IMG/VR virus record: IMGVR_UViG_3300027751_000010
Source: an uncultured virus (IMG/VR IMGVR_UViG_3300027751_000010)
Lineage: Duplodnaviria > Heunggongvirae > Uroviricota > Caudoviricetes
Reading direction: 5' to 3' (one strand)
DNA length: 64,000 bases
Part shown: in pieces, positions 3,102 to 55,529 of the stretch
Position numbering within the stretch: the stretch's first letter is position 1
Layout of the letters: each line of letters starts with the position of its first letter
The notes under the pieces: generated by a model
Databases searched by the model: none
What the model was told of the DNA's origin: nothing
The model's input: the letters and a program-made list of their open reading frames with translations, nothing else
Made by a program: the position numbers and the translations under genes

Positions 3102-3512
3102 TTATAACACCTTTGTGGGTGTTTTCCTATACCAATCCGGTTTCATTGCAATCTTCTCACGTATCCTTTGACGGATAATATTCTTATCGTCCTCAGATGG
3201 AGTCCAATCAAGATATAAATCATCTGGCCATTGCTCGCGTTTGAACACACGGTCTGGGTCAGGACTCATTCCTCGCCCCTGCATCTCACGTATTAAGGCT
3301 TGATAACGCTTGTGCAAATACTTGCCCTTGTTGTAAAAGAAAGACACATGACCTTTGTTGAGAGTAAAGTTCTTTGGGATTCGATTAACATTCCAGTGTG
3401 GTGACTGCAATGATCTGCGCAGGGAAGACCCTACCATAAACAATTCCCGATACTCTGCAACGAGGTGTTGGTCGTGCAGTTCCGAAGGGTCTACTAAATT
3501 AATTCGTGTCAT
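3102..3512 (-). CDS. denV: pyrimidine dimer DNA glycosylase / endonuclease V (T4 DenV)
   Basis: MTRINL...DQHLVAEYREL...FTLNKGHVSFFYNK...KPDWYR. Confidence 0.95.
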   Translation of the reverse strand: MTRINLVDPSELHDQHLVAEYRELFMVGSSLRRSLQSPHWNVNRIPKNFTLNKGHVSFFYNKGKYLHKRYQALIREMQGRGMSPDPDRVFKREQWPDDLYLDWTPSEDDKNIIRQRIREKIAMKPDWYRKTPTKVL

Positions 3513-3900
3513 TTTCTACATCACTCAATAGGTTTTCTAAAATATCTGCATCAATTGCATTTGCTAGAGCATCAGCTAGTTTTGTCAATAAAGGATTCAT
3601 AAAATCATCATGTTCCTTCTCAATTTGGCTTTGGGTCTTTTCACATGTGTGAAGTGTATCAGCCAATTTGTGTTGAAACATCGCCTTGTCTGCATCCTTA
3701 TATGTTGTAAATATATTGTCATTAACAATAGATATGTCGTGATTTTCTTGCGTGTATCCTGGTTCAGGTTCTATACGCACCATAGTAGCTCTCTTAAATC
3801 CTATGAACCGTTCATAGGGTGTGAGCAGAACCTCACCAGACCTCACGCCATGCACTGTCGCAATATATACTTTGTCACCTACGTTCATTTTCTCACCCAC
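3499..3900 (-). CDS. hypothetical, MNVGDKVY paralog family (1/3)
   Basis: shares MNVGDKVY and IFTTxKDADK with neighbours. Confidence 0.75.
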   Translation of the reverse strand: MGEKMNVGDKVYIATVHGVRSGEVLLTPYERFIGFKRATMVRIEPEPGYTQENHDISIVNDNIFTTYKDADKAMFQHKLADTLHTCEKTQSQIEKEHDDFMNPLLTKLADALANAIDADILENLLSDVENDTN

Positions 3901-4232
3901 ATGCCGTCGCCGGTTATGTCTTCGTATTCACGCTCTAGTAGTTTAATAAACATATGATGTTTTTGATTCACAGTCCATCTTAATTCGTGTATAGTGCCCG
4001 CAAGCTCGCGCAAGAACCATGCCTTGTCAGCATCTTTTTCTGTAGTAAAAATATCACCGGATGGAAATACATCGTAATGTTTGGAGCTCATTGTTTGATC
4101 AGCACGTAAATACGGAATCTGTCTGTCTGCCACATCTAACATTATCTCTTCAGGAAGCACCGGCAATCCAGTTACCTCTGCCTCAAACACACCTAGCGTA
4201 GTTAATACATATACTTTGTCACCAACGTTCAT
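3885..4232 (-). CDS. hypothetical, MNVGDKVY paralog family (2/3)
   Basis: MNVGDKVY...IFTTEKDADKAWFLRELAG. Confidence 0.75.
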   Translation of the reverse strand: MNVGDKVYVLTTLGVFEAEVTGLPVLPEEIMLDVADRQIPYLRADQTMSSKHYDVFPSGDIFTTEKDADKAWFLRELAGTIHELRWTVNQKHHMFIKLLEREYEDITGDGMWVRK

Positions 4233-4492
4233 TGAGTGCCACCTTTTAACTTCAATATAAAACCGATCTTCTCAGCCTCTTTTCTTGTAGCAAAAATATA
4301 TTTGGCTGGTACATAATGCGAGTGAGCAAATGGACCTTGGGGGTTGTCTGGCCGCCGAAGAAGAACACTAATATGTTCAACACCACGATCATCAATATAC
4401 TTACCCTTTTGTATAATACCCTCCCACACGTGGTTACGGGTAATACCGTTAACCAACACATATACCTTATCACTCACGTTCATTGCTATCAC
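4229..4492 (-). CDS. hypothetical, MNVGDKVY paralog family (3/3)
   Basis: MNVSDKVY...IFATRKEAEKIGFILKLKGG. Confidence 0.75.
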   Translation of the reverse strand: MIAMNVSDKVYVLVNGITRNHVWEGIIQKGKYIDDRGVEHISVLLRRPDNPQGPFAHSHYVPAKYIFATRKEAEKIGFILKLKGGTQ

Positions 4493-4712
4493 CTTGTAAA
4501 ATTGCTATGAACATATTCTTCGGATCTAATGTAAGTTGTACGGGTATTAGAACAGAACCAACATGGCGCTTTGCAGAACTTTTTGCGTGGCCAGCTTGAG
4601 GAAATAGGCGAGCCTTCTCAAACTTTTCGGTACGAGAAAATGTTCTAGCTGACCCAGATAAAAACATCCGGTCATCCGGAAAATATAATACGTATGCTGT
4701 TGACTCAATCAA
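4470..4712 (-). CDS. hypothetical protein
   Basis: coupled ORF ending KNMFIAILQG. Confidence 0.65.
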   Translation of the reverse strand: MIESTAYVLYFPDDRMFLSGSARTFSRTEKFEKARLFPQAGHAKSSAKRHVGSVLIPVQLTLDPKNMFIAILQGDSNERE

Positions 4713-5061
4713 GTGTCAACCCCCCAACGTACATGCCATCTTTAATCAAGATGGCCTTGCCATCTTTAAATCTACCATTGTTTCCTCTTTCCCAAATATA
4801 AAGAGCTAGTGGTAACGGTTCTCGCGGAAATAATATAAGTACATAAAATTCATCTAAGCCAACCATTGAATCTAGACGCTTCAAACCAGCTTGCCAGTTT
4901 GGATCCATAGCATTAAACTCTTCCAAAAAGAATGTAACGTCCTGACCTTTTAATTTGCGCAAAAATAATGCACGTTCATCAAATGTATCCCATTCACAAT
5001 AGTCGCGCGGTATACCGAGTGCCGTTTTAAGGTTGTGTGGTAGACATTCCAAACTAGACAT
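4705..5061 (-). CDS. hypothetical protein
   Basis: coupled ORF containing RALFLRKLKG. Confidence 0.65.
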   Translation of the reverse strand: MSSLECLPHNLKTALGIPRDYCEWDTFDERALFLRKLKGQDVTFFLEEFNAMDPNWQAGLKRLDSMVGLDEFYVLILFPREPLPLALYIWERGNNGRFKDGKAILIKDGMYVGGLTLD

Positions 5062-5599
5062 CTTTCACTACTCGTCTAATAATACCAGCCTCATCAAACA
5101 TAAACTTAGGAACAATATCAATATCATAGTGTACGCCCGTGCCCTTGCCAGGAAACAACCTATCTGGCCCAATGACTTCAACAATGCCAGCTTGTATAAT
5201 AGCGCCAGCACAACCTGTACACAATGATGCAGGTGAATAATTGAGGTATAGCTTGCAACCCTTTAATGGGATGCCCACTCTTGCCGCATTGAAAATCGCA
5301 TTAGCTTCCGCATGTACGATCCAGGAATATTTTTCGGGTCTCTCCCAACGACTGTTAAGTGTGCGCTTTAGTTTCCATACAGCGAACGGGTGATCAGGAT
5401 CACCGTCGGGACTTACACAAACGCGCTCCACATCTTCCTCAATCACTCCACGCGGAAACCCATTAAACCCACTGGAGCGCGGCTCGTTGTCTGGTCCTAT
5501 AATTACACAACCAACTTTGGTACTAGGGTCTTTTGATTTGGTTGCTGCGTGTTCCGCAGCTTTAATGTGGTGTAAGTCCCACGACGTTGTTTCACTCAT
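5054..5599 (-). CDS. dCMP deaminase
   Basis: SKDPSTKVGCVI, GFNGFPRG, HAEANAI, CxxC zinc site (LCTGCA). Confidence 0.92.
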   Translation of the reverse strand: MSETTSWDLHHIKAAEHAATKSKDPSTKVGCVIIGPDNEPRSSGFNGFPRGVIEEDVERVCVSPDGDPDHPFAVWKLKRTLNSRWERPEKYSWIVHAEANAIFNAARVGIPLKGCKLYLNYSPASLCTGCAGAIIQAGIVEVIGPDRLFPGKGTGVHYDIDIVPKFMFDEAGIIRRVVKDV

Positions 5600-5884
5600 T
5601 CATTTCTCCCATTCATCAAGTGGTGTAGAAGCTACCCTATCTTCTTCTTCGGTATCAATTATATCTTTTAGCTCGTCTACAGTTATATTATACTTACTAA
5701 AATATGTTTCTTTATAGAGATCAATTATCGAAACATCGAATTCAAAACCCTTACCAAATTTTTCCATGGCTTTTAGAAATTCATCGGAATCGCCCAACTG
5801 TATACTGAACGTCGGAACCATATTTGTAAGTTTACAGTAGAATAAATCCTTGCCAGTAAACGTTTGGTATCTATATACCTTCAT
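5600..5884 (-). CDS. hypothetical, TxKDLF family
   Basis: TFTGKDLFYCKLTN. Confidence 0.7.
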   Translation of the reverse strand: MKVYRYQTFTGKDLFYCKLTNMVPTFSIQLGDSDEFLKAMEKFGKGFEFDVSIIDLYKETYFSKYNITVDELKDIIDTEEEDRVASTPLDEWEK

Positions 5885-6153
5885 CAGGCGAGTTCCATTA
5901 TTATCGTAGTCATTGAGACATATCTAAATTGTGTTGGCGACTTGCGTACCCATGTTTGATAAGCATAGAGTGTACCATCACCACTATACATATATTTTCT
6001 AAAGCCTTTTAAGGCTTGTCTCTTTTCGCAAGCTATTAGAAACTGTCTATGTACTTCTATATCGGTAGTAGGAGCAAACGCAGGAAGCTCATTACGCAAG
6101 TTATACATAAACAACTCTTTGTCTGTAATTGTATCTATTGTATGTAACTTCAT
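5884..6153 (-). CDS. hypothetical, TxKDLF family
   Basis: TITDKELFMYNLRN. Confidence 0.7.
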   Translation of the reverse strand: MKLHTIDTITDKELFMYNLRNELPAFAPTTDIEVHRQFLIACEKRQALKGFRKYMYSGDGTLYAYQTWVRKSPTQFRYVSMTTIIMELA

Positions 6154-6569
6154 GTCCTAATCCTTGTAATGTCTACCATCTTCTCCTGGTCTATGTTTAT
6201 TACATCAATAAACACTCGCCTAGGGTCACCTGCCCATTTATTGGACAGCACGGATGTCCATTGGATGGCTTGTACGTCTTGCAACTGTGTAAGTGTCCAG
6301 CAACGAGACTTATATTCTACTGCTTTTAGCACTGCATCGACGCCAGCGTGTACTCCGCGCTCGTAAATTATTGTTGCAAAATTGAGTTCAGCCAAATACC
6401 ATGTACAAGCAAATTCGTCTATGCCCTTAAACTCATGCATCTTGCGCGCCACTTCCATGCGTTCATCTCTAGCCACATATTCAAAGAATGGAATTGTACC
6501 TTCAAGGTTACACAAGAACAAATCCTTGCTTGTAAATTCGTGAAAGTTATACGGCTTGCTGAGTTTCAT
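6150..6569 (-). CDS. hypothetical, TxKDLF family
   Basis: EFTSKDLFLCNLEG. Confidence 0.7.
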   Translation of the reverse strand: MKLSKPYNFHEFTSKDLFLCNLEGTIPFFEYVARDERMEVARKMHEFKGIDEFACTWYLAELNFATIIYERGVHAGVDAVLKAVEYKSRCWTLTQLQDVQAIQWTSVLSNKWAGDPRRVFIDVINIDQEKMVDITRIRT

Positions 6570-6930
6570 TAGGTACCCGCACCTTCATTAAATGAAATCT
6601 AAATTCTGCTTTACCGTTCATCCTTAGAGCGAGCTGATCCCACGCAACAATATCCATATCATCATAACAGTTGCCGGTCCGTTCATAATATCTGTAATAA
6701 CGAGATTCGTTTTCTTGAGGATAAACTGCAAACCTTGAAAGGTGTTTGAGAATTTCAATCCCTGCTAACGGAGTTTGAAACGCATAAACACGCGGCTTGG
6801 CTCTATATTTTAATGCCTTCCACGGAGAATCCTTAAAGACAATAACAGTCCCCGCAAGGTTATGCGCAAATATATCTTTGCCCGTAAGATCACAGAAATC
6901 TATAGGTTCGTCAGATAGTTGGAATTTCAT
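6547..6930 (-). CDS. hypothetical, TxKDLF family
   Basis: DLTGKDIFAHNLAG; RBS AGGAG. Confidence 0.7.
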   Translation of the reverse strand: MKFQLSDEPIDFCDLTGKDIFAHNLAGTVIVFKDSPWKALKYRAKPRVYAFQTPLAGIEILKHLSRFAVYPQENESRYYRYYERTGNCYDDMDIVAWDQLALRMNGKAEFRFHLMKVRVPNETQQAV

Positions 6931-6950
6931 CTTTGTTCTCCTGTATATAC

Positions 6951-6979
6951 ATTATACACGAAAACAAGACAAAAGTCAA
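6951..6979 (-). promoter_or_regulatory. sigma70-like promoter TTGACT-N17-TATAAT
   Basis: near-consensus; -10 lies inside an inverted repeat 6933..6967. Confidence 0.8.
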
Positions 6980-6986
6980 GATGTTT

Positions 6987-7682
6987 TTAGAGTATTGATT
7001 CGATGTGGTTTAGGGCTGCTGTATACTTAGCGAGGTAGGCTGTGGCTCTTTTACCCTTTTTGAACTTGGTGATACCAACATTATAGGCTTGGACGGCATT
7101 GCTTTTATCTTTTGTACGAGCGTAATATCTTTTGAGGACATTAGCACCTATCTTTATCTGTAGCTCAATGCTGTTCAACATCTCATCATGATCCACACCC
7201 CAAACATTAGGACGGACCTGCATCAAACCAATAGCAGGATCCCTACGTAGTTTGGATCGGGCATTAGGATTGAAGCTACTCTCTGTCCCAATTATAGCAA
7301 GGATATCCTTTGCTTTAGGAAAGATTGGGTCTTCGTACATATATGCAAGCTCAACAATTTCTCTTGCCAAGGGTTTGTCAATTCGATATTTCTTAGCAAT
7401 ACCTGTAGCAAGAGAATCATAAGCCGTGCTATGTTCTGCCCAGTTTTCACCAGTTTTGGGTGCAACACTTACATTATTGTCTGCGGGTGGCAGTTCAAGT
7501 GCAGTGGTTGTAACGTTAGGATTCTTCCACGGCGAAATATCTATGCCTGGCTTTTCAGCATGTGGTAGATTCATCGCGCCAATTAATCCAGCGGTGGCAA
7601 TTGCGCCACGCGCCATTGACTTTATTGGTCCTTCATCCATTCTAGATACCTCTTCTTCGATTATAAGATCTTCTATTCGCAT
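6987..7682 (-). CDS. lytic transglycosylase (SLT domain), probably virion-associated
   Basis: AIIGTESSFNPNA, GLMQV, AVQAYNVG motifs; acidic N-terminal leader MRIEDLIIEEE. Confidence 0.9.
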   Translation of the reverse strand: MRIEDLIIEEEVSRMDEGPIKSMARGAIATAGLIGAMNLPHAEKPGIDISPWKNPNVTTTALELPPADNNVSVAPKTGENWAEHSTAYDSLATGIAKKYRIDKPLAREIVELAYMYEDPIFPKAKDILAIIGTESSFNPNARSKLRRDPAIGLMQVRPNVWGVDHDEMLNSIELQIKIGANVLKRYYARTKDKSNAVQAYNVGITKFKKGKRATAYLAKYTAALNHIESIL

Positions 7683-7722
7683 CGTTTCCTTATAGGGGTA
7701 TGTAAATGTAAATGTTGTGTTA

Positions 7723-7730
7723 TATTTACC
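7723..7730 (-). promoter_or_regulatory. T4-late-like promoter GGTAAATA
   Basis: tatttacc upstream of SLT gene. Confidence 0.5.
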
Positions 7731-7952
7731 TTATTCTGCGAATTTCTCTAGTTGTCGGGAAGCTTCTTCTAGCGTAATAATGGGTTTATTAGCTTCATAC
7801 AATGCTAATAAACGTCTATGAAGGACCTCATCGTCATCTCGGCTAGCTTCACCAAGCTTAACGATTTGTGCTCCAGTGTCAATTAATTTGGATGGAGGAC
7901 ACTCGCGTAAAATTTTAGCAACGAGTATTCTGTTATTTTCTGAGAAGGACAT
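7731..7952 (-). CDS. hypothetical protein
   Basis: 73-aa ORF with RBS. Confidence 0.6.
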   Translation of the reverse strand: MSFSENNRILVAKILRECPPSKLIDTGAQIVKLGEASRDDDEVLHRRLLALYEANKPIITLEEASRQLEKFAE

Positions 7953-8322
7953 GCTTTTTCCTACTGTATGAGATAATGAAAAAGAATGTTAGGCCGAGCA
8001 TTAGCAATGTAAGCGAGCTTGGCTCAGGAACTGTTGTGGTCTGGTGACTGTCCTGCCACTGCTCCTCATGCTGCCCTGACCACTGGTAGCTGTAATCTTT
8101 ATCACCATACTGGTAGTTGTGTCGCATACCATTGTGAGAGAAATCTTCGTACTGCCAACTGTACTGAACCTTCTCATCGCTGTCATGCTGCGTATAGATC
8201 GGCGTAGCGTTGACCGCACACGAAAATGCAAGTAACAGTATCATAACAATAAGTGCGGCTACGCCGTTCCATGTTAAAATCTTGTAAACACGCTTGCCCA
8301 ATTCGTCCTCTAAACCACTCAT
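7933..8322 (-). CDS. PEP-CTERM sorting-domain protein
   Basis: N-terminal hydrophobic signal (..AVNA|TP); C-terminal VPEPSSLTLLMLGL-TM-RKK basic tail. Confidence 0.85.
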   Translation of the reverse strand: MSGLEDELGKRVYKILTWNGVAALIVMILLLAFSCAVNATPIYTQHDSDEKVQYSWQYEDFSHNGMRHNYQYGDKDYSYQWSGQHEEQWQDSHQTTTVPEPSSLTLLMLGLTFFFIISYSRKKHVLLRK

Positions 8323-8341
8323 CTTCTTCTCCAGGTTAACT

Positions 8342-8449
8342 TCATCTCATTATCAGTATCAGGGCACCAATCTGTCCAAGCCCTGGAAAGATAAAACCAA
8401 GTACCATTAGCGCAAGACATGACCAAAATATAATGTTATCAAACTTCAT
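8342..8449 (-). CDS. small membrane protein (35 aa)
   Basis: hand-translated MKFDNIIFWSCLALMVLGFIFPGLGQIGALILIMR, directly after a promoter. Confidence 0.45.
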   Translation of the reverse strand: MKFDNIIFWSCLALMVLGFIFPGLGQIGALILIMR

Positions 8450-8473
8450 CTATTTGCACTATGTACAGTCTAT

Positions 8474-8502
8474 AGTATACTATCAATTAAGATGAAAGTC
8501 AA
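8474..8502 (-). promoter_or_regulatory. sigma70-like promoter TTGACT-N17-TATACT
   Basis: consensus match, intergenic. Confidence 0.75.
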
Positions 8503-8505
8503 GCA

Positions 8506-8781
8506 TTATTTTTCATCTTTCCGCAGTTCACGCAATGCTTCACTTATGTTGTGCCACTCGCTGGATTCTATATAAAATTCCATATTAGTTCCCTGCTCGT
8601 ATGCTGTGCCGCGCTCGTCACCATATTCATCATCTATTTCTTCACACCAGTCTTTATAATATTCGTCGAGTCGTTCACATGCTTCTATTAGTTTAGCTAT
8701 GTGTTCGCGTTCGGGCGTCTGTTCGATCTCAGCTAGGCCCGCATGGGCGAGCCGTTGTATTGCTTCAAGTGTGTCTTTCAT
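8506..8781 (-). CDS. hypothetical protein
   Basis: ORF 8506..8886; likely start MKDTLE. Confidence 0.6.
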   Translation of the reverse strand: MKDTLEAIQRLAHAGLAEIEQTPEREHIAKLIEACERLDEYYKDWCEEIDDEYGDERGTAYEQGTNMEFYIESSEWHNISEALRELRKDEK

Positions 8782-8783
8782 CT

Positions 8784-9113
8784 TTAACGTCCAGCACTTG
8801 GGTCTTTGGTTGTCCAGCCAGTTAGGTCCTTTACTCTTTGCCATAGTGCAGTTTGTTCTTCTGTAGTCAAATGCTCTGTTGACCAAGTACCAGCCATGTA
8901 TAGTGCCCGCAACGCTTCAATTATCTCATTGTCTTGGTAGCTTTGTATACCATAAACCTCACTCCACGTTAGCTCATCAGCAGCCTCAGCGCGGGATTGT
9001 ATCCTCGCAATGGTGTCCCATTCAACTTCTTGCATTTCAGCAACACGATTACTCAACTCACGAACTTCGTCCTCAAGTGCCTGCATCTTCCTATGTAATA
9101 CTACATCCATCAT
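8784..9113 (-). CDS. hypothetical coiled-coil protein
   Basis: start MMDVV with RBS AAGGAG. Confidence 0.65.
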   Translation of the reverse strand: MMDVVLHRKMQALEDEVRELSNRVAEMQEVEWDTIARIQSRAEAADELTWSEVYGIQSYQDNEIIEALRALYMAGTWSTEHLTTEEQTALWQRVKDLTGWTTKDPSAGR

Positions 9114-9120
9114 TTTCTCC

Positions 9121-9804
9121 TTAAACAATAAATTCAAATGATTCTTTAACATTCGCACTACCATCAACCCAGTGTTCTTTTGATTCCTCTGCTTGCCATG
9201 ATGTACTAATATAGCCCAGCTTAACACTAAAGTCTTTGGTACTGGTTGAAGAATGCATGTAATCGTAATCAACTGCTAGTTTTTGCTTGTACCAAATTTG
9301 TTCAATTAGGGTGTGAGAACTTTCAAGTACACCTGGATGTACTTGCTCCTCATCAAAATCTTCACCGTCTGTCTCTACTGTGACAGTGAAGAACAAACCT
9401 TTCTCAGCTTTAAAACATAGCATTGCAGGGACAAAATCACCTTCTTCTGCATCACTCGGAATTTCGTCATACATTGCTCCGCCTTCTCGACAATATACGC
9501 GAGAACCTTCTTCGATGTCTTTTGTCTCGCCTATTTCTTCGCCGTCAGCATCTACTTCAACAACAGATAAGATACAATCTTCTGAAGCACTAGCAAGATG
9601 TTCAAAGTTATCCACATCAAACCATATTTGATTGCCGTTGCTTGTCATAACAGGAGACTCGCCGAGATGTTCCGTAAGCAGTGCTGCTGCTAGTATGTCT
9701 TCGTTGCCCACCCAATGATTAAGGAAATCCTGCGTCACTTGACCGACCACTAATTCACCGCCATCGCCCTCTGCTGTAATTTTAAAAAATCTTTTACCCA
9801 TCAT
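9121..9804 (-). CDS. hypothetical acidic phage protein
   Basis: 227-aa ORF, GDGGELVVG...EKG motifs. Confidence 0.7.
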   Translation of the reverse strand: MMGKRFFKITAEGDGGELVVGQVTQDFLNHWVGNEDILAAALLTEHLGESPVMTSNGNQIWFDVDNFEHLASASEDCILSVVEVDADGEEIGETKDIEEGSRVYCREGGAMYDEIPSDAEEGDFVPAMLCFKAEKGLFFTVTVETDGEDFDEEQVHPGVLESSHTLIEQIWYKQKLAVDYDYMHSSTSTKDFSVKLGYISTSWQAEESKEHWVDGSANVKESFEFIV

Positions 9805-10004
9805 ATTGCTCCATGTACAAATATTTTTAAAAGTCTGTCTCGTTCTTCAATCGCTTGTTCGGCGGTTTCTACTGCCTTACGTAGCATTTCCTTATAATCA
9901 TTAGTCTGTTGCATTGATTCTCTGACCAACCCATACGCCTCATCTAATTGTGATTGAAGATGATTAATGCTTGTAGTTAGTTTGGCTAATGATGCATCAG
10001 ACAT
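9801..10004 (-). CDS. hypothetical coiled-coil protein
   Basis: coupled ORF. Confidence 0.6.
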   Translation of the reverse strand: MSDASLAKLTTSINHLQSQLDEAYGLVRESMQQTNDYKEMLRKAVETAEQAIEERDRLLKIFVHGAI

Positions 10005-10173
10005 CTTTGTCGTCCAACACGTAAAAATTATTGCCGTTTTCGGTTTTAACCAACGTCAGCCTTACTGGTGGTTCCATGTGTATATATTTAAACCAGTCAC
10101 CCACTTCAATATAACAATGGGGATATTCGTTGCCTAAATACATCCAACCCTTTCCTTCCCAATAATCATTCAT
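9997..10173 (-). CDS. hypothetical protein (58 aa)
   Basis: hand-translated [10 protein letters not shown]...; fills the gap with overlaps at both ends. Confidence 0.55.
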   Translation of the reverse strand: MNDYWEGKGWMYLGNEYPHCYIEVGDWFKYIHMEPPVRLTLVKTENGNNFYVLDDKDV

Positions 10174-10538
10174 TTTGTTTGTCCTATAGCATACGCCTTC
10201 AACCAGTCGTCAGCGTCTATAAACATTTTACTTGCCAGCTTGACCTTACTGTTAGGCTTGTCCCTAAATTCATCTACATATACCCTGCACACAACCAAAT
10301 CATCTGCGTTCTTAAACCGCTTCAAATAGTCTATGCACTCTTGCTTGTCAGGCAAAATATGAAACCCTGAGATGAAACCCTTGCCAACAACTTTGCCTGG
10401 ATTCCAAACTCGTTTAATGTCGGCTTCCAACACAACATCCAACGGCAGTGCTCGTGATCCTTGCACACCATGAAATAACGTCTTCGGTCCAGGAGTCCTA
10501 AACAATCTGTATGCTACGTGTGGTGTCTTCTTATTCAT
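10170..10538 (-). CDS. hypothetical protein
   Basis: AYRLFR...LFHG...GFH motif. Confidence 0.65.
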
Positions 10539-46715: not shown

Positions 46716-46744
46716 ATTATAACACAACTAAGGGGCAATGTCAA
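46716..46744 (-). promoter_or_regulatory. sigma70-like promoter TTGACA-N17-TATAAT
   Basis: perfect consensus; spanned by a 12-bp inverted repeat. Confidence 0.85.
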
Positions 46745-46747
46745 GAC

Positions 46748-47259: not shown

Positions 47260-47267
47260 TATTTATC
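47260..47267 (-). promoter_or_regulatory. T4-late-like promoter GATAAATA
   Basis: directly precedes the structured leader. Confidence 0.65.
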
Positions 47268-47421
47268 AAAATTCTACGTTATCATATGTTCAATGGTAAA
47301 ACCAATAAACAGTAGTCCACCAATTATTATAATTTCGCCCAACCAGAAACACATATACCGTTTCAGTTTGGTATTGAGAAGTTTATCTTTCAAGTTCATG
47401 AGCTAACCTACTTTCTGTGTT

Positions 47422-47451
47422 AAAAAATGTGAGGGGTTTTATCCCCTCACA
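47422..47451 (-). terminator. intrinsic terminator
   Basis: tgtgagggg-tttta-t-cccctcaca stem with U tract on minus strand. Confidence 0.85.
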
Positions 47452-47457
47452 TAAAAA

Positions 47458-48213: not shown

Positions 48214-48223
48214 ATCGTCCCCC

Positions 48224-49423
48224 TTATAGTGCGCCAAGTGTAATTATGTGCCTAACGTAACCCATGCCACCTTTCCACTTTGCGTGGCGTGCAGCCGCTT
48301 CAACCCACTTTTCAGCCTCTTCCATTTTGCCCATTGCCATATAAGCATCAGCCATCATGAGAGCCTGGCAAACATCGTTTGTAACAGACACGGACAGACC
48401 GAAGTCACGTCCCTGACCTGCTGCACCACTATTGCAAAGTCCAGAGAAGGACGGTGCAACACCATTAACGGGCATTTCAGTAGCTTCGTTAATAGTACGT
48501 GCGTCAACGTTAATGTCAGTGGTATCACCTTCAACGACCTGAGAAGAACCTTCAACGACCTGTGAAGTGCCACCAGTTGTTCCTTCAGGGAAATTGTTGT
48601 TGACCACTACACTGTTATTCAACTCATTGTTAGCAGAGCTATCACCTGAGGTTGCAGTTGCATCAGCGTTTGAGTTCAACGTTCCAGATCCACCCTCGCA
48701 TCCACCCTCTGAACACTCGCCCTGATAACCACCACCAATGACAAGCGTGTTGCCTGCATTGTAGGAGTTGTCAGTGTTGTCTACTGTAGTAGTCTGGTCA
48801 CCGTTTGTGGCGGTTACGTCACCAACGTTAGATGAAAGGATACCAGAACCGCCTTCGCTGCCCTGACCTTCGCTATAACCAGTACCAATGTTGATGGAGG
48901 CATTACCGCCTGCTCCACCCTCAGAGAATGACGAAGATGTGTTTGTGTTGCTTGTGTCACCAACGGTTGCTGTCGGGGAGAAAGAGTTTATATCACCTCC
49001 AGGTGCACTTTCGCCTTCACCATAGCCACTTGTGTTGATTCCACCAACGCTCACATTTACGTCACCTACGCTACCACCAGTAGCAGTATTAGTATTATCT
49101 GAATTACCAGACCCAAACACACCAGCACCAGATACCGACGTTGCATCGCCACCTGTTGCTACCTGACCCTGAATCTGGCCCTGTAACTGACCTTGTGCTT
49201 GGCCTTGTTCCTGGCCTTGCTGGTTAGTGTTGGTATTACTATTGTTGTTGGTATTAGTATACGATCCGCCAGTTGAATCGCCACCGCCGCCATTATCATC
49301 ATCACCTGGGTGACAACCTTGTGCTGGAGGATCTTCTGCCCCATTCCCACCACCACAATCTGCCAGAGCAGGCATCGAAAATGCAAGCATCATGCTTACA
49401 AAAATTGCCATTACATATTTCAC
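48224..49423 (-). CDS. secreted Gly/Ser/Asn/Thr-rich repeat protein
   Basis: signal peptide (..PALA|D), low-complexity beta-repeat body, Cys-containing C-domain; GTG start with AAGGAG. Confidence 0.75.
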   Translation of the reverse strand: MKYVMAIFVSMMLAFSMPALADCGGGNGAEDPPAQGCHPGDDDNGGGGDSTGGSYTNTNNNSNTNTNQQGQEQGQAQGQLQGQIQGQVATGGDATSVSGAGVFGSGNSDNTNTATGGSVGDVNVSVGGINTSGYGEGESAPGGDINSFSPTATVGDTSNTNTSSSFSEGGAGGNASINIGTGYSEGQGSEGGSGILSSNVGDVTATNGDQTTTVDNTDNSYNAGNTLVIGGGYQGECSEGGCEGGSGTLNSNADATATSGDSSANNELNNSVVVNNNFPEGTTGGTSQVVEGSSQVVEGDTTDINVDARTINEATEMPVNGVAPSFSGLCNSGAAGQGRDFGLSVSVTNDVCQALMMADAYMAMGKMEEAEKWVEAAARHAKWKGGMGYVRHIITLGAL

Positions 49424-49534
49424 TATTATCTCCTTAAAATAAAAACGCACAAGATTACCTAACCTTGCACCGGACGACCGAGTTCAGAATCTTATCTTAA
49501 AGATTACTGCCGATTACCTAAAGATGTTTTGCAT

Positions 49535-49567
49535 AAAAAATGCATAATACCTTTCGATATTATGCAT
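49535..49567 (-). terminator. intrinsic terminator overlapping the next promoter
   Basis: tgcataata-cctttcga-tattatgca with U tract on minus strand. Confidence 0.6.
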
Positions 49568-49594
49568 TGTAGCACAAGCTTGTTAGGTTGTCAA
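49566..49594 (-). promoter_or_regulatory. sigma70-like promoter TTGACA-N17-TACAAT
   Basis: consensus. Confidence 0.7.
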
Positions 49595-49602
49595 GTCAAA
49601 GA

Positions 49603-49878
49603 TTAATATAATCTCTTTCCAAACACCTTAGCATTTGATTCTTCTAGCTGTTTCCTTGCTCTCTTCTTAGCAATTGCTTTTGTGCGCTTACGTACCATAG
49701 ATGGTTTCTCGTAAAATTCTCTATCTTTCAGCTCACGTAGTAGTCCAGAGTCTTGTACTTTCTTATTAAAAATACGCAACGCCTTGTCAAACTTTCCGTC
49801 TTCTACCATTACTCTTAGCCCTTCAAGTTTCGGTGTTTCGATTCTCTTTGGAGCAAATCTTGTCTTTTTATTAATCAT
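49603..49878 (-). CDS. rpsU: ribosomal protein bS21
   Basis: FDKALRIFNKKV...G.LREL..REFYEKPS..RKR. Confidence 0.92.
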   Translation of the reverse strand: MINKKTRFAPKRIETPKLEGLRVMVEDGKFDKALRIFNKKVQDSGLLRELKDREFYEKPSMVRKRTKAIAKKRARKQLEESNAKVFGKRLY

Positions 49879-51071
49879 TCGTCATTCACCTTTCGTTTAA
49901 CGTAGTGTAGTGTTGGTATCCCCGCCTCATTCATTATAACTTTGGTCACGCCTTTCTTATATAATGAAGGAAGTTGAAATTGTGTTTTAGATAACGCTTT
50001 CTCTAATACTCCTTGTAGTCCCCTTGCGCCTGTCTTTTCTTTCATTGCCTTTGTTGCAACTGACCGCAAGTAAATAGGACTAAATTCTAATTCAATGTTA
50101 TCTAATTGAAATAAACTCTTATACTGATCTGCAATACAATCCTGCGGTTCAACTAGAATTCTCGTCAACATATTTTCATCTAATTCGTGTAACGCAATAA
50201 TAACTGGGAAGCGTCCTACGAATTCAGGAATCATTCCAAACTTAATTAAATCTTCTGATCCTGTATCTAATAATAGCATATCTGTATGTGGTTTGTCAAC
50301 TGTTGCGTTAAATCCGATTGTAGAATACTCTCTTCTGTGCTCTTTAATAATATCTTCTAGACCAACAAATGCACCAGCTGCAATAAACAAAACGTTTGTC
50401 GTGTCAAAACTTCCACCGTGTTTTGGTAGGTCAATGGTCGTGCCTTCAATCAGTTTCAACAAAGCCTGCTGTACGCCCTCACCTGACACATCTCTTGACA
50501 CTGTGCTGCCTTCAGTTTTGCGGCTCTTCTTATCTATTTCATCAAGATAAATTATGCCGTTTTGCGCTGCCTCAATGTCACCGTTTGCTTTGCTTATCAA
50601 ACGTTCAATCAAGTGCTCTACATCTTCGCCAACGTATCCCGCTTCCGTCAAAGATGTTGCGTCAGCATGTACAAACGGAATGTCAAGCAAGCTCGCAACT
50701 GTGCTAACAAGAAGAGTCTTGCCCGTTCCGCTGGGCCCAATCAATAAAGCGTTTGATTTCTTTAGTGTCGTGGTACCCACAGTAGGGTGTTTGATACGCT
50801 TAAAATGGTTGTATATGGTCACAGACAGTGCTTCTTTGGCTGTATGCTGTTCAACAATATACTTGTCGAGGTGAGCTTTAATCTCTTCTGGCGAAGGATT
50901 CTTTAGCGGCTTGAGTTCGGCTTTAGTCTTATGTATAGCGTTGTATCCTACTTCTATACATTCATCACAAATATAAGATGTCTCTTTATCTAATAATTCG
51001 GGACCGGAAACAATCTTCTTTACTTCGTGGATCGTCTTTGTGCAGAAACTACAGGCTATCTTGTCTTTCAT
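49875..51071 (-). CDS. clpX: ATP-dependent Clp protease ATPase ClpX
   Basis: CSFC...C.EC zinc finger, GPSGTGKT, LTEAGYVGEDV, RDVSGEGVQQ, IGF loop, TGARGL. Confidence 0.97.
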   Translation of the reverse strand: MKDKIACSFCTKTIHEVKKIVSGPELLDKETSYICDECIEVGYNAIHKTKAELKPLKNPSPEEIKAHLDKYIVEQHTAKEALSVTIYNHFKRIKHPTVGTTTLKKSNALLIGPSGTGKTLLVSTVASLLDIPFVHADATSLTEAGYVGEDVEHLIERLISKANGDIEAAQNGIIYLDEIDKKSRKTEGSTVSRDVSGEGVQQALLKLIEGTTIDLPKHGGSFDTTNVLFIAAGAFVGLEDIIKEHRREYSTIGFNATVDKPHTDMLLLDTGSEDLIKFGMIPEFVGRFPVIIALHELDENMLTRILVEPQDCIADQYKSLFQLDNIELEFSPIYLRSVATKAMKEKTGARGLQGVLEKALSKTQFQLPSLYKKGVTKVIMNEAGIPTLHYVKRKVNDE

Positions 51072-52069
51072 CTACGACCCTCTTTTTTTAATAGGTGATT
51101 ATAAATGCCGTGATTGGCAACTGGCTTCGGTTTCTCAGGTTGTTCAACAACAGGCTCTTCTACCTTTTCACTTACAGGCTCAGGGGGTGTTGCCTTCTTA
51201 GGTTCCTCGGGCTTCGCTGCCACAAACGTAGATGTAGCATTTGGTTTTAGTTTTTTAGGTTGGGGCTTTGGTTCGGGTTTGGGATCAGGATCATCTGGAT
51301 CGTCATCTTCCCGTATAGCATGTTTAGGATCGTATACCATTAGCGTGTGGTTAGCTGCCATGAGCAATAAAATAGCCATAGGATCAAACACAAAGACAAA
51401 CGCAATAATTACCCAGCGAACTGCCTTCTCCATGTTGCTTTGTGGATCATCATAAACCAACGCAGCAAGGTATTTTACGGGGCCAACCTCAACTTCCAAG
51501 TTACGCAGTTCCGTGCCAAGAACCATCTTCTCATCTTCATACTCACTGATCTTATCCTGCGCTTCGTTTATTGTCCGTGCCAACATATCGCGTTGCTCTT
51601 GTTGACCATCGCGTACCGCCCTAGCTCCATCTGGACCGCTGACCTTATCGTATTCAAGCAACGTCTTGACCGTAGTATCTAGCTGTTCGGTGACCGTTTC
51701 CGAATCTGTGATGCGCGCCTGCTCTCTTGCAATGCGCTGATCCAGTCGTTCTATCTTTGCCGTGTTGTTGCCCACGGGCGCCGCCTGCTCCACATGCGCT
51801 TTTGAGAGCAGCCCAAAGATACCCATGCTTGTTAGCAGCATGGCAACGATGACCACTGGGAGCAGCATATATTTTATCTTTGTTTTGTGATGCCAGTTTC
51901 TGTACAACCAGCTTACACCCACGACCTTGCTTGCCTCCACCACTACGCCCATTGCTAAGGCGTACATTGGGAGTCCAGCAAAAATCGACATGATTCCGAC
52001 AATCGCGAACCAGGCGGCAGCGGTGGCATTTGCCAAGGCTGTAAGTAGAACTAAGTATCCGAAGAACAT
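51068..52069 (-). CDS. membrane protein with coiled coil and Pro/Lys/Glu-rich tail
   Basis: TSMGIFGLLSKAH, EVEVGPVKY, FVFDP.A motifs. Confidence 0.8.
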   Translation of the reverse strand: MFFGYLVLLTALANATAAAWFAIVGIMSIFAGLPMYALAMGVVVEASKVVGVSWLYRNWHHKTKIKYMLLPVVIVAMLLTSMGIFGLLSKAHVEQAAPVGNNTAKIERLDQRIAREQARITDSETVTEQLDTTVKTLLEYDKVSGPDGARAVRDGQQEQRDMLARTINEAQDKISEYEDEKMVLGTELRNLEVEVGPVKYLAALVYDDPQSNMEKAVRWVIIAFVFVFDPMAILLLMAANHTLMVYDPKHAIREDDDPDDPDPKPEPKPQPKKLKPNATSTFVAAKPEEPKKATPPEPVSEKVEEPVVEQPEKPKPVANHGIYNHLLKKEGRR

Positions 52070-52074
52070 ATAAA

Positions 52075-52302
52075 CTATTTATCTTCTTCTGGAGGATTAA
52101 ACGTCCCTGCGAGTGTCTCGGCAAACTGTTGTTTTGGGTCAACAAAGGTGAATTTTAGCTCTTGTACGCCTGCAAGCACCTTTACTTCTGGTAGGAAATC
52201 CTGAATAATGTCTTGGATCTGTTGCAATGATTCCATACAATATTTGGAAGGAAGTGTGCCTGAGTCAGCCCACTGTACATACAAAAGTGGTCTCTTATCC
52301 AT
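52075..52302 (-). CDS. hypothetical protein
   Basis: coupled ORF. Confidence 0.6.
   Translation of the reverse strand: MDKRPLLYVQWADSGTLPSKYCMESLQQIQDIIQDFLPEVKVLAGVQELKFTFVDPKQQFAETLAGTFNPPEEDK
52076..52083 (-). promoter_or_regulatory. T4-late-like promoter GATAAATA
   Basis: GATAAATA-GTTTAT-ATG. Confidence 0.65.
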
Positions 52303-52580
52303 TATCTGGCTCCGCTGTGCTTGGTGCGTTCTCGTAAGGCTTCAAGCATATCGTGCATGGGTTGGTCACTTTTACTTGCATGTCTCGGTGTAACACCTTG
52401 TACGGACACCGGTTGTTCCGGCTGGCGCTGTGGTTCATAAAATTGCAAATCAGCGCCAGCCGGAAGCTCGACTACCAAATAACCATCCTTAGCTAATGCC
52501 TTGTTGGCTTTTTCCATGGCTGTCTTTTCCTCGAAGTTGAGAGTAGACGGGAATGTTAGGATGGCAATGGGTTTAGGCAT
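52302..52580 (-). CDS. hypothetical; paralog of 52573..52734
   Basis: KPIAILTFP...A.K.L...GY.VV. Confidence 0.6.
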   Translation of the reverse strand: MPKPIAILTFPSTLNFEEKTAMEKANKALAKDGYLVVELPAGADLQFYEPQRQPEQPVSVQGVTPRHASKSDQPMHDMLEALRERTKHSGAR

Positions 52581-52734
52581 AGCTAGGTAACACCTCAATA
52601 TACATTTCATCATAAATTATGACTACTGCATATCCATTCTCTTCAAGAATCTTTTTTGCATCCTCAATAATAGTCTTATCAGATGACTTTGGTGTCCGTA
52701 GTATTGCTACTGGTTTATTCTGACTCATTTTCAT
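52573..52734 (-). CDS. hypothetical (53 aa)
   Basis: hand-translated MKMSQNKPVAILRTP...AKKILEENGYAVVI; RBS AAGGAG. Confidence 0.6.
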   Translation of the reverse strand: MKMSQNKPVAILRTPKSSDKTIIEDAKKILEENGYAVVIIYDEMYIEVLPSYA

Positions 52735-53116
52735 TTTCTCCTTGGTTGGTTTTGTTAATTATTTGCTTGACGTTTTCATCGAGCTGTTTTAGATAGGTAT
52801 CCATAGCTTCTGTGGTATAGAAATTTACACCCCAAGAATGACCGCCTATTAATGTGATTGCTAATTTTCCAATAGCATGAGTATCTCTCCAACTTTCGCT
52901 ACTCTCTTTATCTTCATTAAATACCGGTTCAGTTGTTGGCTGACTATCTTTTTTCTTGAACCAACGCCTTGTGGTAACAATTGGAATTTTCGTGGTGTGT
53001 TTGTTTTCCCAGGCATCTTGCTTGGCTTTTATTTGTTCGTCAGTATAGATGGTGAGATGGATAGCTTCTATACGATCTGTGTTAAGATAAAAATCATGAT
53101 TGAATTTAATAAGCAT
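52715..53116 (-). CDS. hypothetical protein
   Basis: MLIKF...YLN.D.I.AI. Confidence 0.65.
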   Translation of the reverse strand: MLIKFNHDFYLNTDRIEAIHLTIYTDEQIKAKQDAWENKHTTKIPIVTTRRWFKKKDSQPTTEPVFNEDKESSESWRDTHAIGKLAITLIGGHSWGVNFYTTEAMDTYLKQLDENVKQIINKTNQGENENESE

Positions 53117-53131
53117 TTTTATTCACCTTTG

Positions 53132-53698
53132 TTATCCACTATACCTACTGCACGATTTGGGTGTTTCCCACCACTCGACTTCTGCAACTTTAACACCAAG
53201 CTTTGCCATCTTTGGCGTAGCTAGGTCATATACCCATTTCGACAAACTTTCGGAAGTTGGAATGAAGTCTACGATAAAGAAGCTTTCGAGGTATTCCCAG
53301 TCTGGACTATTGGGATCCATGTGCGGACCCGAGTCAATAACATATCCTGCCACATAGTCTGTGCCTGGAACTTCTACGGGAACTAAACGTAGCCCGCTAT
53401 GTGAACGCACATTCTCTTCAACTAGTTTACGATATAGCGGATCGTTCTTGTCAATAATAAACTTGTGATCCACAGTCTCATCAAAGAACTTCTTTAACCA
53501 GCTAAGGTGTAGAAAGTCTGTAACCATACCCTGTGCATCTAGTTCATCACCTTCAAGATGCACATGCACCTCCGCTTCATGTCCGTGCAAGTGCCTACAA
53601 ACACACTTACGATCAAGTGCAAATTCCTTTTCGAGTTTCTGCACCCAAACTCTATGTCCATAAGCGAAGTTAAACTGTTTGCTAATCTTCCACGACAT
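53132..53698 (-). CDS. queD: 6-carboxytetrahydropterin synthase (QueD/PTPS)
   Basis: F.YGHR, CRHLHGH, GMVTDF, DHKF, PTSE, ETP.S. Confidence 0.92.
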   Translation of the reverse strand: MSWKISKQFNFAYGHRVWVQKLEKEFALDRKCVCRHLHGHEAEVHVHLEGDELDAQGMVTDFLHLSWLKKFFDETVDHKFIIDKNDPLYRKLVEENVRSHSGLRLVPVEVPGTDYVAGYVIDSGPHMDPNSPDWEYLESFFIVDFIPTSESLSKWVYDLATPKMAKLGVKVAEVEWWETPKSCSRYSG

Positions 53699-53700
53699 TC

Positions 53701-53886
53701 CTAATCTCCTTTTTTACTATCTAAATATTGTGTTAAATCTTCCCAGTCGATTTCCTCGACCTTTTTAGATTCGATTGCGCGAATCTCTGCCTCAATTCTT
53801 CGTTCGTCCGCTCGACACACGGGACAACCCTGCGCACAAAAACCCGTGTCAGTAACCCAGTGTCCTAAGTATTCGGCCGTAACCAT
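53701..53886 (-). CDS. hypothetical protein
   Basis: H...C...CPVC. Confidence 0.55.
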   Translation of the reverse strand: MVTAEYLGHWVTDTGFCAQGCPVCRADERRIEAEIRAIESKKVEEIDWEDLTQYLDSKKGD

Positions 53887-54185
53887 TATTTTGCCTTATC
53901 ACCTGCTGTGTACTGTGTGCTACCTGTGCCCCACGTCCTTGGCCTATTAACTTCTGGACCGTGTGTGCCAGTGTGCCAAACATCCTCAGGAATTACTTCT
54001 TTGCTAAAGTCTATATGACCTGCGGCAATTTCTCTCAACGCAATCACTGTGGATTTGTCATCGTTGACCGGTACTTTCGGTTCTGCACCCTTCTCTAATT
54101 GGTACGCCCGTTTTGCTGCGATACGAATTAACTCGTATACATTATCGCATTGTGCAAGTGAATCTTCGATTGTTACTCTAGCCAT
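53886..54185 (-). CDS. rpoZ: RNA polymerase omega subunit
   Basis: MARVTIED...N.YEL..IAAKRA.QL..GAEP.V...DK.TVIALREIAAG. Confidence 0.93.
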   Translation of the reverse strand: MARVTIEDSLAQCDNVYELIRIAAKRAYQLEKGAEPKVPVNDDKSTVIALREIAAGHIDFSKEVIPEDVWHTGTHGPEVNRPRTWGTGSTQYTAGDKAK

Positions 54186-54868
54186 TATGCTTTCCTCGCA
54201 AGTGCTAGGAACTCTGTCCTAGTCGCTACATCATTTTTAAACGCACCACCCATCTTACTTGTAACAGTGCTTGAACCTGTGTCTTCGATTCCTCTACTCT
54301 TTACGCAATAATGATCTGCATCAATGACCACTGCCACATCCTCAGTCTCTAAAATGTGGGACAACGCATGATAAATCTGTGCAGTTAGTCTTTCTTGTAC
54401 TTGAGGTCTACGTGAGAAATAATCCACTACACGATTCAGCTTGGATAGACCGATCACCTTTTCACCTGGGATATAGCCTACAGTTGCTTTGCCTACAATG
54501 CCTACAAAATGATGTTCGCAACACGACATGACATTAATGTTCTTCTCAACTAACATCTCATCGTATTGGAACTTGTTGTCCACTACCGTGATCTTAGGAA
54601 AATTTGCGGGATTCAATCCGTAAAATGTTTCCTGCATATACATTTTTGCTACGCGCCCTGGTGTGTCATGTAAACTGTCGTCACTTAAATCGAGATTTAA
54701 GACATTCATAATCTCACGGAAGTTTATTGCGATTCTCTCAATCTTCTCGTTCTGCTCTAAACTATCATATGCTGATTGTTCTGAGGGAGTTGATACGCCT
54801 GCGCGTTTTAATACTTCCTCTATCTCTGCGCCTAGCACAGGATCAGTTTTACTCTTTGTATACGCCAT
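54185..54868 (-). CDS. folE: GTP cyclohydrolase I
   Basis: DDSL.DTP.RVAKMY, SCCEHH, GLSKLNR, RRPQVQERL, H.CV.SRG. Confidence 0.97.
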   Translation of the reverse strand: MAYTKSKTDPVLGAEIEEVLKRAGVSTPSEQSAYDSLEQNEKIERIAINFREIMNVLNLDLSDDSLHDTPGRVAKMYMQETFYGLNPANFPKITVVDNKFQYDEMLVEKNINVMSCCEHHFVGIVGKATVGYIPGEKVIGLSKLNRVVDYFSRRPQVQERLTAQIYHALSHILETEDVAVVIDADHYCVKSRGIEDTGSSTVTSKMGGAFKNDVATRTEFLALARKA

Positions 54869-55176
54869 TATTCCTTTTCTCCATCTTGTAATTCTTTTAT
54901 TGCCTCACGCATCTCACGCATTGCTGTAAATAGTTTTGTCTGTTCCTGCTCTATCTTTGCAGTCTTTTCAATCAACTGCCTAATAGGCCCAGGTGTTTCT
55001 AAATGACCTTTTAAGCTACGCAAAAACCTATGTTTTGCAAAAAGCTTTTTCAAATCTTCATCTTGATCTATATTCAAGATCAAATTATCTAACACATCAA
55101 TAATGTCGTCATCTAAGTCATACCCAACTTGGTAAGGACGCATAAGATTAATTTTCATTTCGTTTATATCAGCCAT
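54868..55176 (-). CDS. hypothetical; paralog of 55176..55529
   Basis: KHRFLRSLKG....PGPI plus coiled coil. Confidence 0.65.
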   Translation of the reverse strand: MADINEMKINLMRPYQVGYDLDDDIIDVLDNLILNIDQDEDLKKLFAKHRFLRSLKGHLETPGPIRQLIEKTAKIEQEQTKLFTAMREMREAIKELQDGEKE

Positions 55177-55529
55177 TATATTGATAATCCATATTTAGAC
55201 GCCGTAGGGCGCATTGTGTCTATAGCAGAAGTAATATTGCTATTATATGTTTGCTCTTGTATAGCCTTCAACAGATGAACCAAAGCTATTTCTGTTTCTT
55301 TTAACTGGTATAGCAACATATTATTTTCGTTACGTACAGCCATTATTTCTCGAGATAGTGTCTTTATGTCCATATGCATAACAGTAATAACTCCTGGCAT
55401 ATGATTATCACCTTCCAAGCGATCAAGGAACTTCTTCTTATCTATTAAGTTATCCAACAAACCTTCATCTAACATCTCACATAAGATGTCTAGTTTGTGT
55501 AACCTATCAAGTGGGTTTTCCGAGGTCAT
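55176..55529 (-). CDS. hypothetical protein
   Basis: KKKFLDRLEG....PGVI plus coiled coil. Confidence 0.65.
   Translation of the reverse strand: MTSENPLDRLHKLDILCEMLDEGLLDNLIDKKKFLDRLEGDNHMPGVITVMHMDIKTLSREIMAVRNENNMLLYQLKETEIALVHLLKAIQEQTYNSNITSAIDTMRPTASKYGLSI

Follow-up and report, generated by a model that had tools for sequence, protein, structure and literature searches.

A short, probably helical motif recurs on many small early-type proteins in one clade of jumbo phages

The zinc-binding domain of ClpX is a known dock for adaptors and is proposed to co-evolve with them; SspB in Escherichia coli and PDIP38 in mitochondria are tethered to it, each joining a variable cargo body to a short docking element (PMC7647994). 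In Legionella, unrelated Dot/Icm effectors share an FxxxLxxxK helix, with Phe and Leu four residues apart, that binds one groove of the adaptor LvgA (PMC7251119). Phage T4 uses a portable short capsid targeting sequence on diverse proteins (PMC3012670), and two small phage proteins are known to act on AAA+ proteases, the FtsH inhibitor CIII of lambda (PMC1838920) and the ClpC adaptor-like Gp53 of SPO1 (PMC6873191). Here we analyze a motif with the core [KR]xxFxxxL that recurs in the small proteins encoded by a 64,000-nucleotide stretch of DNA (the window) from an uncultured tailed virus, IMG/VR record IMGVR_UViG_3300027751_000010.

The motif resembles each of these systems in part. The virus encodes its own ClpX, ClpP and ClpS, but while a cell has one or a few ClpX adaptors (PMC7647994), the motif marks about 29% of small proteins, and its binding is putative. 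Compared with the LvgA helix (PMC7251119) it is capped by a Gly nine residues after its first position, and its context is a lytic phage, not secretion. The T4 tag is N-terminal and loads proheads (PMC3012670), whereas the motif is free in position and sits on early-type genes; CIII and Gp53 are each a single protein, whereas the motif is a proteome-wide tag. It is mentioned nowhere in the accessible text of a survey of group 2.2 jumbo phages (PMC7824862) or of a 2026 jumbo-phage review (PMC13282480), and we found no description of it in the literature searched, which lay mostly outside subscription journals and came without supplements. For most small genes of jumbo phages no function has been assigned; if the interpretation developed below is true, roughly a quarter of those in the clade would be linked to a single pathway through one shared dock.

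Nearly all genes of the window lie on the minus strand, which holds 127 open reading frames (ORFs), 103 of them small (230 amino acids or less) and 24 large. A sequence-only reading of the window had claimed that the motif recurs in about 25 small proteins, and a [KR]xxFxxxL site is present in 24 of the 25 ORFs named there. The motif is real and above chance: 30 sites occur in 29 of the 127 ORFs, against 7.9 ± 2.7 expected (maximum 18 in 1000 shuffles). The small ORFs contain all 30 (5.0 in shuffles), and the large ones contain none (2.9 in shuffles). By contrast, 100 kb of E. coli, our non-phage control and a stand-in for the proteome of the true host, is at background, with 6 sites observed and 10.9 expected. 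The G or N at +9 that the earlier reading had made part of the motif is found at 15 sites against 0.8 in shuffles, and is thus a property of just half of them.

Because the pattern had been picked by eye, we also ran an unbiased search over approximately 309,000 gapped three-residue patterns (45 spacings, 19 letters) in non-redundant small proteins. In the window K..F...L ranks first, being present in 24 of 96 proteins against 4.2 expected (log10 p −10.7; runner-up −6.1). Among related contigs it ranks first in G003 (log10 p −17.5), third in the short contigs G001 and G004, and second in G002, behind its own sub-pattern F..KL; the ranking is similar with a cruder gene caller. An expectation-maximization profile, trained on the clade with the window included, assigns a site to 113 of the clade's 387 non-redundant small proteins (∼29%) and prefers Thr/Ser/Asp at −2, Asp/Lys/Glu at −1, Lys at 0, Glu at +1, Phe at +3, Lys/Arg at +6, Leu at +7, Lys at +8 and Gly at +9. 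Taking at least 12 bits as a strong site, the window has 19 carriers among 102 small proteins and none among 23 large ones, against 0.3 in shuffles. In this phage and its close relatives, between about a fifth and a quarter of small early proteins, otherwise unrelated, carry the motif.

Read along the chain, these preferences would describe a self-contained ten-residue helix, K0-E-x-F3-x-x-K/R6-L7-x-G9, with a Thr/Ser/Asp cap in front. On a helical wheel positions 0, 3 and 7 fall at 0, 300 and 340 degrees, and positions −2, 1 and 5 at 160, 100 and 140 degrees. We infer a capped short helix, and the predicted structure of the carrier at 4229-4483 (predicted local distance difference test, pLDDT, 79.9) shows four strands followed by a helix, residues 67-79, that contains the motif; a single-sequence model of 37519-37920 was poor (pLDDT 46.5) and was left aside. 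Such a helix differs from the SspB tether, a C-terminal peptide in extended form. The pattern could also be read as a weak amphipathic helix that targets membranes, and the tail of E. coli MinD fits its bare form at 6.9 bits. However, hydrophobic residues at both +4 and +8, which in MinD form a continuous face with +3 and +7, are found in 1 of 142 sites, and the motif also sits on membrane-anchored proteins; MinD-type targeting was rejected for want of that face, and membrane binding in general seems to us highly improbable. Two of the described systems drop out by sequence as well: a Lys eight residues after the Phe, as in the LvgA motif, is found in 12 of 123 sites, and CIII, which shares Glu at +1, Lys at +6 and Leu at +7 in register (PMC1838920), has Leu at 0 and Ile at +3, scores 6.1 bits, and has a Pfam model that no carrier matches at E 0.1.

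The carriers of the window, with the nucleotides of positions 0 to +7 given as the site, are:

3499-3900, 3885-4232, 4229-4483, 4470-4667 and 4705-5061, minus strand: five tandem carriers; sites 3664-3687, 4002-4025, 4247-4270, 4497-4520 and 4951-4974; 15.6-22.2 bits
5600..6930, minus strand: four tandem carriers, motif N-terminal; sites 5828-5851, 6097-6120, 6504-6527 and 6856-6879; 16.5-19.6 bits
11627..11824, minus strand: 65-residue carrier with little beyond the motif; site 11726-11749; 22.7 bits
12421..12594, minus strand: 57-residue peptide with two motif copies; sites 12511-12534 and 12466-12489; 20.6 and 17.5 bits
13973..14416, minus strand: N-terminal membrane segment (hydropathy scan) with the motif 27 residues after it; site 14234-14257; 21.3 bits
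14818..15171, minus strand: internal site 14890-14913; 22.9 bits
20747..21196, minus strand: member of helical-hairpin family A, whose second window member, 17627-17974, has Gln at 0; weak site 21089-21112; 7.4 bits
21228-21893, minus strand: site 21825-21848; 15.5 bits
22165-22509, minus strand: weak site 22429-22452; 10.3 bits
25472..26863, minus strand: three related carriers; sites 25556-25579, 25882-25905 and 26543-26566; 22.5, 8.0 and 9.1 bits
28858-29310, minus strand: site 29002-29025; 11.9 bits
29307-29975, minus strand: site 29325-29348; 14.8 bits
30535-31005, minus strand: site 30949-30972; 15.7 bits
37519..37920, minus strand: N-terminal motif ahead of a beta-repeat body; site 37879-37902; 16.5 bits
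52075..52302, minus strand: weak carrier absent from the earlier list; site 52111-52134; 7.7 bits
54868..55529, minus strand: pair of hairpin and coiled-coil carriers; sites 55012-55035 and 55416-55439; 7.2 and 20.8 bits

The 19 strong carriers comprise 18 ORFs of the sequence-only reading, which cited minus-strand ORFs by their low (stop) ends, and 13973-14416, which it had missed; six others that it named are weak, at 7-12 bits (20747, 22165, 25825, 26507, 28858 and 54868). The N-terminal site it cited in 22479-22805 does not fit, having Glu at 0 and Ile at +7, and the pattern match of that ORF lies elsewhere, at the C-terminus, with a low score of 1.4 bits. In 12421-12594 the second site, with Ala at 0, fails the pattern but is recognized by the profile. 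Matches in 58699 and 62001 and the second match in 6547 are at chance level.

The codons for K0, E1, F3, K6, L7 and G9 are at background (87 clusters), and the signal is therefore at the level of protein, not a DNA repeat or a ribosome-binding site. When the last 30 residues of every protein are removed, 37 sites remain against 9.1 expected, and Gly at +9 is found in 42 of 106 sites far from a downstream start and in 18 of 33 near one. Conservation is strongest at the same residues: in 75 homologues of 55176-55529, at 41% mean identity, F3 and L7 are present in 75, G9 in 74, K6 in 73 and K0 in 69, and these five are among the 15 most conserved of 140 columns. The family of 21228 retains F+3 and L+7 at 26% mean identity, and that of 52075..52302 retains the pattern in all 6 clade members shown. 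One homologue of 55176-55529, P0158 in G002, is labelled by one source as belonging to a Thorarchaeota metagenome bin, and is probably a mis-binned phage contig.

The bodies behind the motif differ. With the motif masked and BLAST at E 0.01, a procedure after which remote homology may still merge some clusters, 198 strong carriers fall into 115 body clusters and the 19 of the window into 18. Bodies include an SH3-like barrel (3499-3900, 3885-4232 and 4229-4483, with weak PWWP/Tudor/chromo matches, best E 0.015), a beta-repeat, hairpins with coiled coils and membrane anchors, and some carriers are peptides of 48-65 residues with little else. Five of six carriers with a predicted membrane segment have the motif 5-27 residues past the last segment, mostly behind basic residues. 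Among 87 sites 36 are C-terminal (16.6 expected), 27 N-terminal (27.7 expected) and 25 internal, in agreement with the earlier claim of N-terminal, internal and C-terminal placement on different bodies, to which the positions after membrane segments are an addition. A single expanded paralogous domain was rejected as the source, since carriers are not homologous outside the motif and a barrel, a beta-repeat and membrane tails have to be accommodated. Databases add little: no Pfam model matched any of 31 small proteins above cut-off, PHROGs matched 3 of the 31, in the body only, and 0 of 13 related proteins. The PHROG 7964/5070 matches of 37519..37920 are confined to residues 49-110, within the body; 4229-4492 has a single database match, which is near-identical, and the two-copy peptide 12421..12594 has no usable match in the ESM Atlas.

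To place the motif among phages we used RFC, a clamp-loader subunit. The copy in the window is closest to those of the Pseudomonas phages PA5oct and Paride (57.6% identity), followed by Atu_ph07, Vibrio 2.275.O, RsoM2USA, SCTP-2 and XacN1, and the gene order of Paride agrees with that of the window, which on these grounds we take to be part of a member of the group 2.2 jumbo phages (PMC7824862). An RFC tree of 41 of 102 rows (the 7 motif-rich rows, the nearest and the cultured relatives, and 25 random others) puts the carriers in one clade of 8 rows, with support 100/99 and L007 + L008 as sister. Throughout this clade the motif is enriched, with observed/expected sites of 14/2.2, 29/5.3, 37/6.3 and 13/2.9 in G001-G004, and 3 sites against 0.5 in L201, the eighth row. 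The pattern is at background in G005, Paride, XacN1, Atu_ph07 (400 of 490 kb), Vibrio 2.275.O and RsoM2USA, and at 12 bits or more five cultured genomes have 0-3 carriers in 301-530 small proteins against 0.3-1.7 in shuffles.

In wider searches enrichment is confined to the five closest of 80 viral loci found by RFC, and in 80 metagenome RFC loci the motif is present in those at ≥65% identity, where small genes are present. Among 80 ClpX and two omega loci, L117, L118 and L121 are enriched, and the G001-type L125 and L126 more weakly. L120 and L129 were considered as a second motif lineage and rejected: they are rich in the pattern (4/0.9 and 6/1.9), but none of their proteins exceeds 11 bits. 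These two phages, of 480-520 kb, have a tandem expansion of a domain ending in FKLxW (L120:767-5671, L129:58-629). Of 200 pattern-bearing clade proteins, BLAST finds a homologue among 7,125 outgroup proteins for only 16. The cultured phage Atu_ph07 has a portable motif of its own, D-[IL]-P-[FV] (L383-L402), which is enriched, with D.IP at 34 against 9.3 and the four-residue form at 11 against 2.5; we take it to resemble the tail of bacterial SSB.

Promoters date the carriers, under early and late labels that follow consensus promoter classes. The window has 22 sigma70-like sites in 2078..62477, all on the minus strand, against 0.25 in shuffles, and none on the plus strand. PA5oct is transcribed by the host polymerase from TTGAC/TATAATA promoters (PMC7318152). 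For all 19 strong carriers of the window the nearest upstream promoter is sigma70-like, as at 6979, immediately upstream of the carriers in 5600..6930. Across the clade 104 carriers lie behind sigma70-like sites, 7 behind the late-type ATAAATA and 26 are unassigned, against 324 and 117 for the other clade genes, in counts where genes of one operon are not independent. By these early-type promoters, the carriers would be early accessory proteins. A second, N-terminal tag, M-K/R-x-x-E-L/I, has the opposite distribution (3 genes behind sigma70-like sites, 20 behind ATAAATA) and is found in all group 2.2 genomes checked. In the window its genes are:

6987-7682: lytic transglycosylase
31058-32533: protein with an AAA_33/zeta-like kinase domain
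32530-33567, 40198-41658 and 56962-57465: further genes with the tag

The N-terminal tag is probably a capsid-loading signal, presumably akin to T4 capsid targeting. A capsid-loading signal, or a DNA-level element such as a repeat or ribosome-binding site, could account for the C-terminal bias of the [KR]xxFxxxL motif, but the background codons, the sites that remain without the C-termini and the early-type promoters reduce the probability of either almost to nothing. A T4-type capsid tag was likewise rejected, there being no N-terminal excess, and sorting into the virion is unlikely, with the carriers behind early-type promoters and a separate tag marking the late genes.

Conserved families suggest how the motif may have changed. 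In informative outgroup homologues Leu at +7 is retained and positions 0 and +3 differ, and several families have K at 0 together with F at +3 in the motif clade only. Family A hairpins of L007 and L008 have Glu at 0 and Ile at +3. Paride_0049, a homologue of the 55176 family (E 2.8e-6), has Ile at +3, and the gene at this locus in G007 has Val. At the position of 52075..52302, two sister phages have genes, homologous by gene order only, with Glu at 0 and Ala/Leu at +3. Family B, which has no annotation, is a helix module at the C-terminus of proteins with long low-complexity N-termini; clustering at 50% gives 790 representatives (54868-55176 in the window, P0002-P0151 elsewhere; no PHROG match for six tested). 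In the best 150 of the 790 its +3 is Leu in 48%, Met in 33% (together 81%), Phe in 9% and Ile in 7%, and its position 0 is His/Asn/Gln/Lys; clade members have Phe, or still Met, at +3. The FKLxW small-domain family shares K6-L7 and gained Phe at +3 in the clade. Finally, there are 10 [KR]L[KRHAQ]G sites in the sister phages, against 1.9 expected; 7 have Glu/Asp at 0 and all 10 a small residue at +3. Of 17 clade sites of this form, 10 have Lys/Arg at 0 and 13 have Phe at +3. It is probable that the sister phage uses an altered version of the motif, acidic at 0 and small at +3.

That the same two positions change in several families of one lineage is, we infer, best explained by a shared binding surface, and the hairpin families hold hydrophobic residues of their own on a second helix face, opposite 0, +3 and +7. 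The sequence-only reading had also named, as an outcome that would refute it, the buried core helix of one homologous domain. This is partly true, as the motif helix of some carriers comes last or second in a conserved small fold, but no single domain is common to all. A related account makes the motif a structural relic: a helix that a handful of expanded small folds conserve, spread by shuffling and kept for folding only. Related helices do end widespread folds (family B, the FKLxW family, the helix after the SH3-like barrel), and the window has tandem paralogues. Folding alone, however, would not lead one to expect 115 body clusters, body-free peptides and tails after membrane segments, or separate families to share the F3/K0 change on the side away from their cores, and we consider a relic quite unlikely. 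A helix that binds itself, co-assembling small proteins as homo- or hetero-oligomers with no separate reader, would through mutual pairing also produce coordinated change across families; families A, B and 55176 run on into coiled-coil-like segments, and one peptide has two copies. Like-with-like packing is disfavored by the basic character of the sites (mean net charge +1.8) and their lack of hydrophobicity (mean −0.22), with two fixed hydrophobic residues only, which makes self-binding unlikely. The two preferred lysines in a fixed F/L frame could alternatively be the recognition site of a modifying enzyme or endopeptidase, for example for lysine acylation at 0 or +6, and acetyltransferases and ADP-ribosyltransferases are common in jumbo phages (PMC7824862). 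No such enzyme is found among the clade-confined families, though, and the sister version is acidic at 0; we think modification very unlikely.

The interpretation we favor, and think fairly probable, is that the motif is a portable helix by which many early proteins dock on one common partner, with which it co-evolves. Unrelated early proteins would dock on a shared cytoplasmic partner, K0, F3 and L7 on one face of the helix plugging into its groove, and the variable body (barrel, beta-repeat, coiled coil, membrane anchor or nothing) would set what the partner is brought to, or where. The likely source of the helix is the exposed side of helices in a small number of conserved group 2.2 families; it would have changed jointly with the partner in the clade lineage and later been recruited widely. 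The versions in the clade and its sister would then be a built-in specificity control. As partner we would first guess an accessory domain of the phage Clp protease kit, the helix being an adaptor tether or a timed degron. Overall an AAA+ protease is a tentative choice that we hold with less than even confidence, and its ClpX zinc-binding domain, more specifically, a doubtful one. Omega or RNA polymerase, an Sm-like protein or a host protein share the rest. The first candidates are:

49875..51071, minus strand: phage ClpX (zf-C4_ClpX, E 2.4e-10, and AAA_2)
about 50910-51062, minus strand: zinc-binding domain of ClpX, intact; leading candidate reader
53886..54185, minus strand: RNA polymerase omega subunit (RNA_pol_Rpb6, E 3.9e-18); alternative candidate

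In all five clade copies of ClpX a Gly replaces the Cys that is found in 37 of 37 other phage copies, and the loop of the zinc domain contains an insertion with Asp or Glu as its first residue. In both sister copies the loop has Val, and a residue adjoining the Gly/Cys site is aromatic, which would complement the small +3 of the sister motif. A complex prediction of two ClpX zinc-binding domains with zinc and the motif segment of 14818-15171 scored 0.02 against a mark of 0.32, without folded controls, and speaks neither for nor against binding. An F-box-like adaptor library, in which early proteins, around a hundred of them and all evolving fast, each bind a target in the host or a site on the membrane and pass it to phage ClpXP by way of the helix, dock and tag switching together in each clade as a private degradation code, is an unlikely extension of the docking idea. 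With the phage protease as reader, a bacterial virus would have a modular system for targeted degradation.

Several observations weigh against docking on one partner, or against ClpX as that partner. In several carriers the helix belongs to a fold, and membrane proteins form a smaller share of carriers (6 of 93) than of the whole set (57 of 376). The motif-rich clade contigs are all partial, 12-44% complete. The sister version was defined post hoc, mainly from one contig (G005); it gained only one further site in 30 new small proteins of G007, and the unbiased pattern search did not recover it. ClpX, ClpP, ClpS, FtsH and Hsp20 are also present in the motif-negative relatives Paride and G005, as is S21 in motif-negative relatives, and their presence therefore does not single out a partner. 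The ClpX loop insertion is found in motif-poor Paride too, and G010 has Ser-Tyr at the Gly/Cys site but no motif. Clade-fixed changes are frequent in any case (10 of 155 conserved columns in ClpX, 5 of 156 in RFC, 2 of 25 in ClpS and 3 of 23 in S21). As the motif arose once, every clade-specific trait correlates with it and no partner tracks it uniquely. Of the earlier proposal, then, the portable tag on unrelated bodies stands, through codons, body clusters, varied positions, conservation and coordinated changes, while its link to one hub, and above all ClpXP or FtsH as that hub, stays conjectural. A ClpA-like gene, too, is common across the group, and a partner present in all, with an altered pocket, would fit the versions of both clade and sister. 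FtsH is not in its usual place, the ClpP-ClpS interval, in motif-positive G001, a contig 14% complete, and was rejected as sole reader on that basis.

The window also encodes FtsH and S21, besides omega. Five clade contigs have omega (the window, G001, G002, L117 and L118), while Paride, G005 and five other cultured genomes do not, but its candidacy is weakened by the many other genes limited to the clade. A search of 50,697 phage records for omega gave 9 matches, all looking like bacterial DNA and none a genuine jumbo-phage copy. The best 80 relatives of omega in bacterial genomes are mostly from Gammaproteobacteria, a weak pointer to a gammaproteobacterial host. At 59629-59961, beside ribonucleotide reductase, lies a conserved Sm-like protein (phrog_527), a further candidate partner, which in the ESM Atlas falls in viral clusters with Sm_like and DUF6561 as the nearest named.

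Among neighboring genes, the carrier pair in 54868..55529 sits between those for thymidylate synthase and GTP cyclohydrolase, and 47458-48237 encodes an OmpA-domain protein. The ORF at 3102-3512, on the plus strand, presumably resembles T4 endonuclease V, a likeness seen by eye. Within the minus-strand block, the single plus-strand ORF at 38841-39161 encodes 106 residues with a motif-like site that has Leu at +3 and scores 10.5 bits.

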